From a virus (Duplodnaviria > Caudoviricetes), in IMG/VR virus record IMGVR_UViG_3300013426_000028, positions 1-64,000 of that record: 64,000 bases of DNA, one strand, 5' to 3'. A program made the translations under genes and the position numbers. The notes under the pieces are model-generated. The model was not told where the DNA came from and made no database searches. It worked only from the letters and a program-made list of their open reading frames with translations. How positions within the stretch are numbered: position 1 is the first letter of the stretch; each line of letters begins with the position of its first letter. This document shows positions 49,405 to 63,465 of the stretch, piece after piece.

Positions 49405-49625
49405 TGTATTGGTACGATGATGATAGCTTCTGGGAGGATAAGAAACCTCCTAAGACATATGATTACTTGCATGATGATATAGAGGATCCTGCGGAGTATG
49501 ATGATTGGTTACGATATATGGCAAGAGGAATTGGAATGAGGTATCCTGATGAAGATGACGTGTATAGTGATCATGATGAATACGGTGATATAATAATGCC
49601 ACCGTGGAACGATGATGACGATTAG
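49404..49625 (+). CDS. Small, highly acidic, aromatic-rich protein
   Basis: TAATG overlap; Asp-rich; followed by terminator. Confidence 0.5.
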   Translation: MYWYDDDSFWEDKKPPKTYDYLHDDIEDPAEYDDWLRYMARGIGMRYPDEDDVYSDHDEYGDIIMPPWNDDDD

Positions 49626-49646
49626 GGAGCGCAAGCTCTCTTTTTG
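49624..49646 (+). terminator. Intrinsic terminator
   Basis: AGGGAGC-GCAA-GCTCTCT plus T-run. Confidence 0.75.
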
Positions 49647-50146
49647 TTTTGTGCCTGTGGTGTGAATCTGTTTAAATCTGTTTGAATCATTTAGATTCTG
49701 TGTTCATCTGGTGTGTCTCAATAGAGTATGATGATTCATTTTGCAATTAGATAAATTAAGAATCCAGATGATCTAAATAATCTAGATGAATCTGATGAAG
49801 CATCAAGAAAAAAATCTGGCCCTAGAATAAAAAGCTTCCTGCCTCATTAAAAAACGTCGCCCCATCAAACATTCGATTTATTTTCCATTTACATGGAGAA
49901 AAAACAAACTGAATCCCTTCCAGGTATAATTTAAGGGGACTCCGCGTTCTTGTCTGTTATTTAAAGAACTACCTTTAAATAAATCGTCTAAAATCGAAAA
50001 TAACTATATATAAACTCTTAGAAATTCCCAGAATCATTAAATTAATTATATAATAATTAAAAAGAACTAAAAAGAATTAAAAGAATCTTCCCTCCATCAA
50101 AAAAAGTATCCCTCTCAAAAAAAATAAAAAAAGTTTTTAAAACCTA

Positions 50147-50174
50147 TTGACTTATTTTTATATTCCTGTATACT
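50147..50174 (+). promoter_or_regulatory. Promoter with upstream A-tracts and no downstream ORF
   Basis: TTGACT-N16-TATACT followed by the ..AGTGTAA start motif seen at other promoters. Confidence 0.7.
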
Positions 50175-50180
50175 TATTAG

Positions 50181-50980
50181 TGTAAAGGGGGAAAGGAAAT
50201 GAACCTCCGAAGTACCCCTTACAAGTTCTTTGAAAAATCAATATCAGTCCATTATCATTTTGGATAAAAAAGAATTCATCACAGTGACGACGTCATAAAA
50301 GTACTAACTTAAACTGTAAAAAATAATCTGACAGTATAAACGAGGCGTCGGTACCGTGATGAACTCTTTTAAAAGCTAGTACGGAACTTGGCCAAATCCC
50401 GCTGATACTATTAAAATAACATTTATCATGTTTTCTCCAACCTATATTTAAATGAACCTTATCGGTTATTTTAATATCAAGGGAAATTGATGATGCAATG
50501 CAATACGCTATTAACCAAAATAATCAGCATAACTCAGTGAATCCCCAATTCACTTCCCGCACTACTTTCCAAAAGATTCATTCAACCCATCCCCTTAACA
50601 GGGATGCTATGAGGGCTCTGTTTAGAAGATCCAATAGGAACAGTTATTTATATCTACTTATAAATAATTAAACTCCTTATGGTCCCTCTTTAAATGTGCA
50701 AATTTATTAATCCCTTCTTCAGAGCTTTCATAGGGTCCTTGTAAGGCCCAATTTTAGTTTTTATAGATGGACTAGGTAGACAAATTAGGTAGACAAAGAG
50801 GACGCCTGTTTTGGACAGACAGGTTTCCTTGAAGAGCAGAGATCAGAACACCACACCACCTTCTAACCTGAAAGTATTTGATCAGTACCTTTTCTATCTC
50901 TGCTCCTTAAGGCAACTTATTTACCTTAGCTCACACCGTATTCACCACTTTTCCTCCTGGTAGTACGGTGTTTTCGTTTT
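50181..50980 (+). ncRNA. Candidate long (~800 nt) highly structured non-coding RNA
   Basis: Own promoter, boxA-like GTTCTTTGAAAA (50225), at least 7 long helices with G-U pairs on the + strand, terminal hairpin plus T-run, no ORF of 60 aa or more. Confidence 0.65.
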
Positions 50981-51808
50981 CTCTTTATCCTCATCTAATC
51001 GGATCCTTTTTTCTTATTGACACTGTGTCAGTAATATTCTGTGCCCTTCTTTTTCCTCTTTTTTTATTATCTTCCTTCTTCCAGATGCTTGCAAATTGTA
51101 ATCATCTGTTTTTCTCTATTTGCTCCTGTAAGTACAGTTTTTTAATACTTCGTGGAGCAAAAATTGCACTTCAAATTCTGTTTTTACCTTTTCAGGTGCA
51201 AAAAATCTCACCCTCTCGTTAAAAAACAATCGCCCTTATAGCTAATATATTAGCGATTAAGGTTACAAAAGAGGTTTATCGCTAATATTTGAGCGATTCT
51301 TTCACCATCATATAGTATCCCCTGCGAGAGCGCCCTTTTTGTGACACTGTAATGTCACTTTTCTGGATGTTTTCTATCTTTTTTTCTGGTTCTTTTCTGG
51401 ATGATGCATCAATGACATAATTCTGGTATAATTATAACATAATTATGTACCTCGTAGCTATATCATTATAATGATATATTTCACACTATTCTACTCCATA
51501 TACTACACTACCTCCTCTCGTCCATTTCTTTTTTCGCTTATAGGCATACACCAGATTTTTCGCGCCTATAAGGCTGAAAAAATACGGGCGGCAGAAAAAA
51601 GGTGGCACTCCAGTAAAAAAAAGTGGGGCGCCCGTGTAAAAAGTGCCCGCTCGCATAGTTTCCCCTGGCTGCGTAGTTTTACGTCGGTCATTTCCCTTCG
51701 ACGGTTATGGATTGCTTGGGGCTGGTTATAGTATCGCTTGGATTACGGATTTACTTTGCTTGAATAAAAGTCAACTACTTAGACGGCGAGGAATAAAGGA
51801 GTGAACCT

Positions 51809-51886
51809 TTACTTTCGGCCCACTCCAGTCATGCAGCAAAACAAATATACTGCACAAACAATGAAACTTAACATAAGTCCATTCAT
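51809..51886 (-). CDS. 25-aa hydrophobic peptide, type I toxin-like (not in ORF track)
   Basis: MNGLMLSFIVCAVYLFCCMTGVGRK; AAAGGAGGTGA RBS; upstream TTGTAT-N16-TACAAT. Confidence 0.5.
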   Translation of the reverse strand: MNGLMLSFIVCAVYLFCCMTGVGRK

Positions 51887-51942
51887 TATCTACTCACCTC
51901 CTTTCCAATATATTGTAACACATAAACTGTGTAATACAATCA

Positions 51943-52668: not shown

Positions 52669-52775
52669 AAGTTTTCCTCCTAATACTTTTATTTGTTCCT
52701 ATTTGATTAATACCATTATACCACAAGTGTTGTCAGCACACAAGTGGTATAATGATTTTGTTTAATTAATTTGAA

Positions 52776-53042: not shown

Positions 53043-53063
53043 TTTTATTTTTCCTCCTATTGT

Positions 53064-55143: not shown

Positions 55144-55218
55144 AACATTTTTCCTCCTTATATAAAATTTTGTTATGAATCGACTCGACTGTTCCTATTT
55201 AATTTTTAATTTATATGT

Positions 55219-56411: not shown

Positions 56412-57326
56412 TTATTTTCCTCCTTTCTTTTCTATTTCAACTTGGTTTAAAATTTCTTCTAAATCAATTTGATTCAATAAATAAGGGCCTTTTCTTAATT
56501 TAACATAAGATTTTAAATCCTTTATTACAGGTAAATTATACGTTGCTTCACCTATATTTTGTACTTCTTCGAAGTGTCTTATTGTGGCTGTATCAACACT
56601 TATATTAATACCACTTTCGTATGCTTCAAAATGATATAATTTATTTTTATAAACGAATAAGATGAACGCACATCCCCAAGCCCAATGAGAAGGTGAAGAA
56701 ATATCTCGAATTAAAGTCATATTATTTATTGTATTTTCGGTAAAATAACATTTGAGTCTATTTCTTTTATATTCGCTATATGCTTCTTGATTTATCATTT
56801 TTTCTTTTTGATAATTATAATCAATTATCAAACTTAAATATTTATTCAGTAATTCAAGAGTTTCTTTGACATCTGACAACATTTGACTATATGAATTTAA
56901 AGGAAAATAATCAAACGAAAAATCTTTTAAATTAATAAATATTTCGTTATGTTTTGGAGCAGGTGTTCTGATATATAGCCAAAATCCTTCTTTATTGTGT
57001 CTTTCTATTGTTGCCATATAAATAGATTCTAAAATAGGATATTGTTCTATTAAACGAGAAGTTAATCTAAAATCTATAATTTGATTAGTTTCTATTTGCT
57101 TTTTTAATTTTTGTACTTGACCACTATTAATAATTTGCTCTTCTAATTTCATAATTTCTTTTGCTAATATTTGATTAGTTTTAAGTACTTCTAACTCGCT
57201 TTGTTCAAAATCATTGTATTTTAGGTCTATGTTTTTGATTGCTTCGCATTTTTCTATTTCGCAAGTTTCTTTAAAGTGTGTTATTTCTTCATAAGTTTGT
57301 TTTGTAATTTTATCATATAAATTCAT
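56412..57326 (-). CDS. Hypothetical protein
   Basis: AGGAGG RBS. Confidence 0.6.
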   Translation of the reverse strand: MNLYDKITKQTYEEITHFKETCEIEKCEAIKNIDLKYNDFEQSELEVLKTNQILAKEIMKLEEQIINSGQVQKLKKQIETNQIIDFRLTSRLIEQYPILESIYMATIERHNKEGFWLYIRTPAPKHNEIFINLKDFSFDYFPLNSYSQMLSDVKETLELLNKYLSLIIDYNYQKEKMINQEAYSEYKRNRLKCYFTENTINNMTLIRDISSPSHWAWGCAFILFVYKNKLYHFEAYESGINISVDTATIRHFEEVQNIGEATYNLPVIKDLKSYVKLRKGPYLLNQIDLEEILNQVEIEKKGGK

Positions 57327-57350
57327 AACTTTTTCCTCCTTTCTTTAGAA

Positions 57351-57638: not shown

Positions 57639-57709
57639 AATTATTTTCCTCCTATATATGAATTTAACGACTGTTCCTATTGATTTATGTATTAAAATGA
57701 ATAATAAAA

Positions 57710-58171: not shown

Positions 58172-58207
58172 ATTTTTTTCCTCCTATTTAATTAATTAAA
58201 AGAGAGA

Positions 58208-60294: not shown

Positions 60295-62736
60295 TTATCC
60301 TCTACAACAAAGAGCACCATATTGAGAATGAATTGATGTTTCATCAACATTTCCTGTTTCTTGTGCCCATTGTAATAAAGCTTGCACAATTTCAGCATCA
60401 GGATTACTATTACATAATCCGTGAACTTGTCTTATAGAAAACTTATTATCAATAGAACCATTTTGAGAAAGTTCTATTGTAAAATATGGTTCAGACAAAT
60501 TACTATTTTTTCTGAAAAACAATATTGCTGTATGTTTGTTTGCAAACGTTTCTTGATAAGAGCTTACACAATGATGTAAGATTTTTCCTTCTGTGGATAA
60601 ATCTTCTACTTTTTCAGGAACTAAAATAGTAAATTCATCATTGCTCCAAGCAAATTTCTTTTGTAATATTTCCTTCCAAGGTTTATATCTTTCATTTAAT
60701 AGTTTGGATTGGTCAGCACTGATTATTTGTTTAAAAGCATCATAATTTTCCGACATAAAATTATGAAGATAATGAATTTTCATTTTAAGATCTGATTGTA
60801 GAATTGCTTGTTTTAAACAATAAACAGAAATTTGTGGAAAATGTTTTGTAACACATTCACAAACATATGACAAATTATTATTTTTAAAATCTTCTTTTGT
60901 TGTTGGAAAATCAATTGGAATTAATTTAATTTTTTCCTTCATTTGATAATAATCATATAATTCTGATAATTTTGCCACGTCGGATGCACTAATTTTATTT
61001 AATATTCGAATAATTTCAGAATCTGAAAATCCTTGTTCTGGAATTATAATGTTATAAAATGTCATAATATTAAGTATCAAATCTTTTACATATAAATGAT
61101 GACCTTTGTCACAAATCAGATTTTTAAACATTTCTAACGTTATATATTTACCATATTTTTTAGCAATTTGTTTTTTAGATAATGTTTTTCTATTTGAAGC
61201 AATTCTACAATATCCATAATTATAACAAGAAGGATAATTTGTTATGGACATGTTTCCTTTTAAAATATTAATCAAATAATAAAATAATTCTGCATGAAAA
61301 TCAGTACAAACATAATTTTTATCGAAAATTGTTGCATCTTTTATAAAATCTTCGTAATTTTTCTTACTTAAATAACATTGTTCATACATTTTAGTCTTTT
61401 GTATATCACAAGCAGTATCAAATAATAATTGTGTCACTCGCGACGCTGTACGAGAGTTAGCAATATTTGTTGAATAAAACAATTTTCTTGCCTCTATAAA
61501 TTCATTAACGTATGTAGAACCATAATGCTTAATAAAACTTTCATATGTCATATCTTTATAGTATAAAGGATTAAACAAAGGCTCTAATATTTTTTGATAT
61601 ATTAATTCTCCAATAGTAAAATCTTTATTATAATAAGCATAAGAATAATGACCTTTTTTACAATAAGAGTTATTAATGCTATACGAAGACAAAATTTCTG
61701 CAAAACTATTATTTGGAAACATTGAATTAAAAATGTAATTTAAACCATGAATTTCTTGAATCTCAGAAATATGTTCTTGAATACAATTTATAATTTGTTG
61801 AAAACTCTGTACATCTGAATAATTAACACTATTGAAAGTTTGATATTTATTGGTTTTATCAATTGTTAATTCTCCTTGTGGAGAAGCGAGAAAACATTCG
61901 CAGTTTCCTGTCTTTTTGTCATATACGTGTAATATTATATTTCTCCAATAGTTTTTATTATACATTAAAAGATACACATTATCTTGATCAGATTCAATAT
62001 GTAATATATTGTTTGATTCAATCAATTCTTTTATTTTGTTTTGAAACATGTCTTGGTATGTTAACAATTTTGATTTTTGAATTGTTTTATGTGCAAATTT
62101 CGTTTTGTTTGGATGTTTAATACATTCAATAAATGTTGCAATAGGAAACATTTCATTATAATCTACAGAGTGATTTATTTGCCACCAATTTTTTAATACA
62201 GTTAAATCAAAACCTTGTTCCTTCAATATTTTTGTTGAAAAAGGTGATAAACGTCCAAATGGATATTTATCACCTTGATAAGAATCTATTGTATTTATAT
62301 TTACAAATCTAATATCTTGGGTATTGGATGCATTACTAATTTTCCAAGATCTTTCTTTTGGTTCAACAAAACGTTTGTTTGAATCATACATTTCCCAATC
62401 ATTTGTAATATAAAACATAGGTTCATTACGATATAAATAAGGAAATGCCTTTCTATTTGTAACATAGGAGTTAAACAAATATATGCCAACACCCTTTTTA
62501 TTATTAATAGTACATTTTTCAATGAAAATATAGTTTTTAGAAGCATTTTTAATAGGAAATAATAAAGCATAATCTTTAAAATCTTCTAATACTAGTTGTC
62601 CTTGTTTATCATAAATTTTTCCTGCTGGTGTTACTGTATACATTGGTAATTGGCATAATTGTTCGTGTGTTTCAACTTCTACCTCTCTTAAATTAGGCAT
62701 GTTGTTAAATGTGTTTACTTTAATTTCTTTATTCAT
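60295..62736 (-). CDS. Large protein with C-terminal PcfJ-like domain
   Basis: P....DL..EG..LHHCV.SY, I.F.RK....PYFTIE, Q..G..N. Confidence 0.7.
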   Translation of the reverse strand: MNKEIKVNTFNNMPNLREVEVETHEQLCQLPMYTVTPAGKIYDKQGQLVLEDFKDYALLFPIKNASKNYIFIEKCTINNKKGVGIYLFNSYVTNRKAFPYLYRNEPMFYITNDWEMYDSNKRFVEPKERSWKISNASNTQDIRFVNINTIDSYQGDKYPFGRLSPFSTKILKEQGFDLTVLKNWWQINHSVDYNEMFPIATFIECIKHPNKTKFAHKTIQKSKLLTYQDMFQNKIKELIESNNILHIESDQDNVYLLMYNKNYWRNIILHVYDKKTGNCECFLASPQGELTIDKTNKYQTFNSVNYSDVQSFQQIINCIQEHISEIQEIHGLNYIFNSMFPNNSFAEILSSYSINNSYCKKGHYSYAYYNKDFTIGELIYQKILEPLFNPLYYKDMTYESFIKHYGSTYVNEFIEARKLFYSTNIANSRTASRVTQLLFDTACDIQKTKMYEQCYLSKKNYEDFIKDATIFDKNYVCTDFHAELFYYLINILKGNMSITNYPSCYNYGYCRIASNRKTLSKKQIAKKYGKYITLEMFKNLICDKGHHLYVKDLILNIMTFYNIIIPEQGFSDSEIIRILNKISASDVAKLSELYDYYQMKEKIKLIPIDFPTTKEDFKNNNLSYVCECVTKHFPQISVYCLKQAILQSDLKMKIHYLHNFMSENYDAFKQIISADQSKLLNERYKPWKEILQKKFAWSNDEFTILVPEKVEDLSTEGKILHHCVSSYQETFANKHTAILFFRKNSNLSEPYFTIELSQNGSIDNKFSIRQVHGLCNSNPDAEIVQALLQWAQETGNVDETSIHSQYGALCCRG

Positions 62737-62832
62737 AATTTTTCCTCCAATTTTTCCTTTTTCAAGGGATAAGAATATTTTTATGGAGAAAATATTCAAA
62801 ACCTTGTTCCTATTTAATTTTCAATTTAAAGA

Positions 62833-63399: not shown

Positions 63400-63465
63400 A
63401 ACTGTTTTCCTCCTATAATATAAATGTTATGATGTTCCTATTGAGTTATTGTTCCTATTTAACGA

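Follow-up and report, generated by a model that had tools for sequence, protein, structure and literature searches.

Why does a terminator-like hairpin between two blocks of phage genes carry, in its loop, the complement of the ribosome-binding sites (RBSs) of one of those blocks? The hairpin lies in the window, the 64,000-nt stretch analysed here, which comprises bases 1–64000 of a 95.6-kb IMG/VR virus record (IMGVR_UViG_3300013426_000028) of an uncultured gut phage, with an estimated completeness of 69%. Replication genes occupy the plus strand up to 49625, and a block of 42 minus-strand genes extends from 51809 to ~80.6 kb. The 2.3 kb between them lacks credible open reading frames (ORFs) and houses the hairpin together with a predicted ~800-nt structured RNA that ends in it. 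Helicases of SPbeta-group Bacillus phages are 38% identical to the replicative helicase of this phage, and Pfam and PHROGs searches with ten minus-block genes give at best families of unknown function. The loop is a constrained, exposed, Shine-Dalgarno (SD)-complementary element, and the reading put forward here, to which we give a probability of about 0.35 from the sequence evidence, is that it pairs in trans with the RBSs of the minus-strand block.

The terminator loop and the ribosome-binding sites of the minus-strand block

Three relatives of the 241-aa gene that flanks the region came out of a protein-guided scan, and ~75 Logan contigs encode the flanking protein (P0001–P0003). The region is spanned by contigs L014/L015 (~84% identical) and L012 (~80%), and three sequences, 80–85% identical, were aligned. 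The closest complete relative is a 138.7-kb contig of a Hadza-gut metagenome-assembled genome (MAG) that is taken as the putative host bin; MAG binning may or may not give the true host. The hairpin and the tract that follows it are:

50933–50971, plus strand: 3′ terminator hairpin, a 14-bp stem with one bulged C and a 10-nt loop CUUUUCCUCC at 50948–50957
50972–50985, plus strand: terminator U-tract, with at least four T straight after the stem in all three homologs, beyond which the sequences diverge

The anti-SD loop described in the first-pass annotation is thus presented on a strong stem (−16.6 kcal/mol, z = −5.9), and none of 200 shuffled sequences is equally stable. The tail UUUCGUUUUCUCUU stands directly 3′ of the stem on the plus strand and the minus-strand side has no T-run; because the U-tract is confined to the plus strand, the hairpin is read as a one-directional intrinsic terminator, very probably that of a novel structured phage RNA. 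Its 10-nt loop exceeds the usual terminator loop size (3–8 nt), and the hairpin is absent from a terminator consensus scan because that scan allows loops of 3–8 nt only.

The hairpin folds alike in the three homologs (−16.6, −16.6 and −14.0 kcal/mol), with a single stem substitution, C-G to U-G, that keeps the pair. Every loop base is predicted to be unpaired (probability ~1.0) in the full-length ensembles of all three, which consider nested structures only. Conservation among homologs had been proposed as a check, and all three homologs, a small sample, share the same loop. Four of 13 predicted hairpin loops are fully invariant, the terminator loop being the longest of the four, and of the 276 10-column windows that are unpaired throughout, just 12 (4.3%) show no variation. 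With three sequences, this low rate points modestly yet genuinely to constraint on the loop. At equal divergence, a neighbouring terminator (49624–49641) has an altered stem as well as an altered loop.

The window contains nine copies of the complementary 10-mer AGGAGGAAAA, where 0.25 would be expected, and all nine are on the minus strand. One copy is the loop itself; the other eight are RBSs situated 3–6 nt ahead of the ATG of real ORFs, and the positions first assigned to them are all correct:

52672–52681, minus strand: RBS AGGAGGAAAA of a 241-aa gene
53049–53058, minus strand: RBS AGGAGGAAAA of an 88-aa gene
55149–55158, minus strand: RBS AGGAGGAAAA of a 209-aa gene (Pfam GP88)
56415–56424, minus strand: RBS AGGAGGAAAA of a 99-aa gene
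57331–57340, minus strand: RBS AGGAGGAAAA of a 304-aa gene
57644–57653, minus strand: RBS AGGAGGAAAA of a 95-aa gene
58176–58185, minus strand: RBS AGGAGGAAAA of a 153-aa gene
63405–63414, minus strand: RBS AGGAGGAAAA of a 188-aa gene

For RBS statistics, ORFs were called over the whole record. Exact AGGAGGAAAA stands ahead of 10 of the 42 minus-block genes and none of the 87 plus-strand genes (Fisher p = 6e-6). The corresponding counts are 14/42 and 0/87 for GGAGGAAA, and 22/42 and 9/87 for AGGAGG. Plus-strand genes use AAGGAG and GAAAGG, as was noticed at the outset, and also AAAGGA. Complementarity to the loop over at least 8 nt is found for 43% of minus-block genes versus 4% and 0% in two plus-strand blocks, and the closest complete relative gives similar values (47% versus 5% and 0%). 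The 10-mer is ~17 times denser in the minus-strand block (9 in 27 kb) than in the rest of the MAG (34 in ~1.76 Mb).

Predicted duplex energies separate this RBS class from more canonical sites. With AGGAGGAAAA the loop forms a duplex of −13.3 kcal/mol and the 16S tail one of −9.8 kcal/mol; with AAAGGAGGUGA the order is reversed (−9.6 for the loop, −17.0 for the tail). The tail used in this comparison, GGAUCACCUCCUUUCUA, was read directly from host-order genomes. On paper, these energies make the loop selective for RBSs of an 'SD + A-spacer' class. The C-rich motif is predicted to be single-stranded, is complementary to several SD regions and is conserved, as in known anti-SD loops.

The exact AGGAGGAAAA RBSs are unevenly distributed, with seven of ten falling within the eleven genes nearest the RNA gene (52.6–58.2 kb). 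The same zone has AATAGGAACA boxes and TATAAT −10 elements gene by gene, and the box is found upstream of 11 minus-block genes. Its sole plus-strand copy (50633–50642) lies within the RNA, where it forms a small hairpin, UCC-AAUA-GGA; in one homolog, two C-G pairs of this stem have become U-G.

A predicted structured RNA of about 800 nt

The elements of the transcription unit upstream of the terminator hairpin are:

50115–50174, plus strand: A-tract (UP-like) and sigma-70-type promoter, with TTGACT at 50147–50152, a 16-nt spacer and TATACT at 50169–50174 (10/12 match)
~50181–50985, plus strand: predicted ~800-nt structured non-coding RNA, based on minimum free energy (MFE), conservation, promoter and terminator, belonging to no Rfam family
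50187–50196, plus strand: 5′ purine tract GGGGGAAAGG, SD-like and a candidate cis partner of the loop, invariant in the three homologs
50225–50236, plus strand: boxA-like element GTTCTTTGAAAA, 4 nt past the 5′ hairpin, with one copy in the window
50536–50554, plus strand: second invariant C-rich apical loop, CCCCA at 50543–50547 on a 7-bp stem, which the first-pass annotation did not list

Sequence features lend good support to a putative plus-strand untranslated structured RNA of ~800 nt that ends at the hairpin: there are a promoter, an rrn-type boxA and a terminator, the fold is strong, the indels are of a non-coding kind, and conservation stops past the U-tract. The promoter is identical in all three homologs, and the arrangement of A-tract plus TTGACTT is like that of rrn leaders in host-order genomes. 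Over the A-tract and −35 region (50117–50155) there is 95% identity across 39 nt to a site near the left end of Staphylococcus phage vB_SurM-PSU4, as well as weak matches in ~30 host-order genomes; this likeness probably reflects a shared strong-promoter/UP architecture.

The boxA-like 12-mer is identical to the TTGTTCTTTGAAAACT element of the host-order rrn leader, where it follows a hairpin, and of the 16S–23S spacer. It has the placement of an rrn-type boxA leader, past a hairpin and near the predicted 5′ end of the transcript, and we take GTTCTTTGAAAA to be boxA, the Nus-factor antitermination signal of untranslated transcripts. The order of a boxB-like 5′ hairpin followed by GTTCTTTGAAAA is that of rrn leader antitermination signals, although here it would drive a non-rRNA phage RNA with a putative Nus dependence. 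In Mollicutes the boxA-like 12-mer serves as a conserved rrn-spacer primer or probe (PMC3019172, PMC7110721).

The 804-nt plus strand has an MFE of −214 kcal/mol (z = −6.8), compared with z = −4.4 for the minus strand. Invariant columns make up 93% of paired positions versus 73% of ungapped unpaired ones, and 12 one-sided changes preserve pairs through G-U on the plus strand; double changes occur at two pairs only, so that support from covariation is weak. Indels in the alignment are not multiples of three, and two large insertions (~100 nt and 27 nt) are placed exactly at predicted helix tips. Both are in the G003 copy, the longer (L015:1360–1470) at the tip of the long helix 50268–50294/50344–50370 and the shorter at the tip of a 3′ domain helix, and they are variable expansion segments of the kind typical of structured RNAs.

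Conserved blocks extend in all three sequences from the A-tract and promoter through the hairpin T-run, immediately 3′ of which three-way identity collapses. The 5′ boundary is set solely by the promoter prediction; similarity to L014 continues further upstream, and the L012 contig ends there. The ORF that starts at ATG 50199 has 22, 33 or 29 codons among the homologs; one of them shows a frameshift past codon 8, for which a coding reading of the ORF was rejected.

Two other CU-rich loops that had been proposed within the RNA do not hold up: near 50431, UUUUCUCC is paired to GGGAAA in both consensus and single-sequence folds, and near 50671 the CUCCUU is unconserved, with CC replaced by UA in both homologs.

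The RNA matches no Rfam family, either at the gathering threshold or at E ≤ 10. Megablast and blastn searches of GenBank phages return as their sole match the 39 nt of the promoter region, and two exact-block scans of IMG/VR, together with protein-guided scans using both flanking genes, yield no further copies. When the RNA was compared by BLAST with genomes of the putative host's order (400) and family (400), low-complexity A-tract or promoter matches were all that emerged. The distant SPbeta-like IMG/VR phages G001 and G002 (~45% and ~34% amino acid identity) have no DNA similarity to the region, and the RNA was not found at the equivalent convergent junction of G001.

Pairing in trans and its alternatives

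Under the trans-pairing reading, host RNA polymerase would transcribe the ~800-nt RNA from the rrn-style promoter with its boxA leader, and the large, invariant loop would stay single-stranded, complementing an SD core and A-rich spacer (GGAGGAAAA). It would most likely pair in trans with the AGGAGGAAAA-class RBSs, which serve roughly one in four genes of the minus-strand block, accessory genes that are mostly ORFans. Such pairing could compete with the 30S subunit and lower translation, in the manner of the C-rich loops of RNAIII, while AAAGGAGGUGA-type RBSs and the weak AAGGAG sites of the plus strand would remain available to the ribosome. We infer that the transcript is made, ends at the hairpin, is abundant and binds these RBSs, and SD occlusion would then be a coherent reading.

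Several observations weigh against it. Complementarity stops at the loop edges in every target, and a duplex scan of the whole RNA against gene leaders shows no class-specific second site (mean −24.5 for minus-block and −24.4 for plus-strand leaders). A 10-nt loop cannot pair over its full length without strain, and strong Firmicute-type RBSs will inevitably match any loop made of CCUCC between U-rich flanks. The RBS of the 241-aa gene is AGGAGAAAAA in the most distant homolog, where the loop is unchanged; loop-target covariation is not seen, there being only three homologs of 80–85% identity, and the invariance of the loop is only modestly significant (~0.04). The 5′ tract of the RNA is, moreover, an equally strong partner for the loop. 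A crude genome-wide scan for hairpins with CCTCC in the loop carries little weight either way, most of its hits being trivial 4-bp A/T stems around real RBSs.

That 5′ tract gives rise to the first alternative, in which the partner of the loop is GGGGGAAAGG at the RNA's own 5′ end and a 5′–3′ contact or pseudoknot ties the ends together or masks the SD-like 5′ end from ribosomes. The match to phage RBSs would then be a by-product, since both partners are SD-like. GGGGGAAAGG pairs with 10 of 10 loop bases (two as G-U) at −14.3 kcal/mol, where the runner-up site in the RNA reaches −7.3, and none of 300 dinucleotide shuffles of the RNA body attains −14.3 (mean −9.2). Both tract and loop are invariant, and masking would make sense given that an AUG 7 nt past the tract opens a non-conserved ORF. 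There is also a precedent in the S. aureus icaR mRNA, whose SD region, in the 5′ UTR (untranslated region), base-pairs with a C-rich motif in the 3′ UTR (PMC3868564). The phage 3′ loop can likewise pair with an SD-like 5′ tract over 10 bp, but the ORF past that tract is not conserved and there is accordingly no protein to regulate, unlike in icaR.

The cis contact is nevertheless somewhat doubtful. All predicted nested folds already engage the G-run of GGGGGAAAGG (probability ~1), either with CCCCUU of the boxB-like 5′ hairpin or with a distant CCCC, and other C-rich segments of the RNA could compete for it. The loop U residues that form G-U pairs in cis are the same ones that give a perfect Watson-Crick complement to the RBS consensus, and the three sequences offer no covariation for the cis pair. 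The cis and trans models are compatible rather than exclusive.

A second alternative, possible although we tend to disbelieve it, is that the hairpin is a terminator only, with a partnerless loop kept by limited divergence, by constraint on the 3′ ~85 nt or by a protein that binds pyrimidine-rich loops. The segment 50890–50975 is near-identical in the three homologs, single-stranded linkers included, 28% of all 10-column alignment windows are invariant, the plus strand is T-rich around the hairpin, and the loop-RBS match was spotted post hoc. However, invariance falls to 4.3% when windows are limited to fully unpaired ones, 9 of the 13 predicted hairpin loops vary, and the terminator at 49624–49641 has changed in stem and loop at the same divergence. 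The 10-nt loop is also oversized for terminators, and the most frequent RBS 10-mer would seldom be matched exactly by chance (expectation 0.25 copies per 64 kb).

The proposal that the loop mimics the 3′ end of 16S rRNA, titrating host SDs or replacing that end, is very unlikely. It draws on the CCUCCU core that the loop has in common with the host-order 16S tail and on an rrn-like promoter that suggests high abundance. The core is nevertheless all that the loop has in common with the tail GAUCACCUCCUUUCU, with which it is not identical, and host-order 16S genes terminate in GGATCACCTCCTTTCTA; the flanks differ and are swapped (CACCUCCUUUCU in the tail, UUUUCCUCCUGG in the loop). Besides the SD itself, the pairing of the loop takes in the A-spacer downstream, and that of 16S the flank upstream. 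Canonical extended SDs prefer 16S over the loop (−17.0 versus −9.6), and the exact 10-mer is rare in the putative host bin (the 34 copies in ~1.76 Mb given above), which argues against host shut-off.

Least credible of all, indeed barely so, is a relic or live minus-strand RBS of a decayed gene or mini-ORF that the hairpin merely overlaps: the minus strand does read AGGAGGAAAA-GTG-GTG-AAT-ACG-GTG-TGA, as first described, with real spacing (AGGAGGAAAA, 3 nt, GTG) and a 4–5 codon frame in all three homologs, and minus-block cassettes share leader elements, copies of which could have scattered, but the likeness to real RBS regions ends at the 10-mer and the flanks are dissimilar, the upstream side (50986–51100) is unconserved in contrast to the hairpin and its weak promoter-like site is missing from the homologs, nothing resembling the remains of an ORF follows on the minus strand, indel lengths there are not divisible by three, and the stem of the hairpin itself supplies the codons of the mini-ORF, which accounts for their conservation.

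Among known systems, trans pairing by the terminator loop would most closely recall RNAIII (RF00503), whose hairpin 14 is its terminator hairpin. The C-rich loops of RNAIII hairpins 7, 13 and 14 pair with the G-rich SD regions on a number of mRNAs, thereby blocking 30S binding (PMC2837412). The phage RNA is similarly a long structured RNA with a conserved C-rich apical loop directed against SDs, in a phage of a Firmicute-type host. It differs in having no sequence or structure homology to RNAIII, in its motif (UUUUCCUCC, the complement of an SD core plus A-spacer, rather than UCCC), and in being phage-encoded and boxA-led with no embedded peptide gene; its targets are inferred, and no extended duplex or second contact was found. 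RsaE/RoxS-type small RNAs and E. coli CyaR likewise rely on an unpaired C-rich or anti-SD loop motif as their seed for pairing with RBSs across a group of mRNAs (PMC2790875, PMC2837412). Whereas those RNAs are ~90–120 nt long and form curated families, the phage RNA has ~800 nt and no family, and its targets would be defined by RBS spelling and not by pathway.

Phages also encode short antisense RNAs, c4 of P1/P7 and sar of P22, which mask the RBS of a single target (ant) through longer or bipartite complementarity. The RNA described here would also be a phage RNA occluding phage RBSs, but it would act on a whole RBS class through a 9–10 nt seed. GOLLD and ROOL are ornately folded RNAs of 600–800 nt located in phages or prophages of Firmicutes. 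The phage RNA is like them in size class, phage location and folding and unlike them in having no Rfam match and no adjoining tRNAs. The mechanism would be a variant of the C-rich-loop riboregulator, carried on an RNA of no known family.

If the loop truly binds AGGAGGAAAA sites, genes would be split into translation classes by RBS spelling, with one class under a single non-coding RNA. A scheme of this kind would let accessory genes be timed or silenced by simple and portable rules, and would assign a role to one part of a large, uncatalogued phage RNA with borrowed rRNA-operon transcription signals. If the loop contacts only the 5′ end of its own RNA, it would still define a specific long-range interaction within this new structured RNA of ~800 nt. 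A fuller scenario, which as a whole we consider unlikely, is that of a temperate SPbeta-like gut phage whose abundant rrn-styled RNA sets translation by RBS class. Its loop would beat the 16S tail only at 'SD + AAAA' sites, such that accessory cassettes are throttled while replication, structural and host genes are spared, and its 5′ tract would be a built-in competitor or switch.

Surroundings of the RNA gene

A tRNA/tmRNA search found none, and no tRNAs adjoin the RNA unit. Further into the minus-strand block, an 834-aa protein (60295–62799, minus strand) has a PcfJ-like domain at its C-terminus; its identification as a YonO RNA polymerase was considered and rejected.

Between the terminator and the minus-strand block, positions 51480–51930 are near-identical across all three homologs and exceed the conservation of the RNA itself. 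This segment contains a gene for a 25-aa hydrophobic peptide (51886–51809, minus strand) with the SD AAAGGAGGTGAG, and an extended −10 element, TGGTATAAT, near 51429 on the plus strand is directed into it; the arrangement looks like a type I toxin-antitoxin pair. At 51236–51298 a 23-bp, partly palindromic word is present twice, 40 bp apart (ATAGCTAATATATTAGCGATT and ATCGCTAATATTTGAGCGATT), and is kept in the homologs. A promoter-like site (TTGAGC-16-TATAGT) adjoins the two words, which look like operators.

The RNA gene is also flanked by repeats composed of an A-run and a short GC-rich word (e.g. AAAAAATCTGGCCCT and AAAAAAGGTGGCACT), located at 49809–49870, 51200–51227 and 51560–51650. Similar A-run/GC-word units fill the corresponding convergent junction in the distant relative G001 (L043:17150–18130); they may be protein-binding sites or packaging or replication signals.

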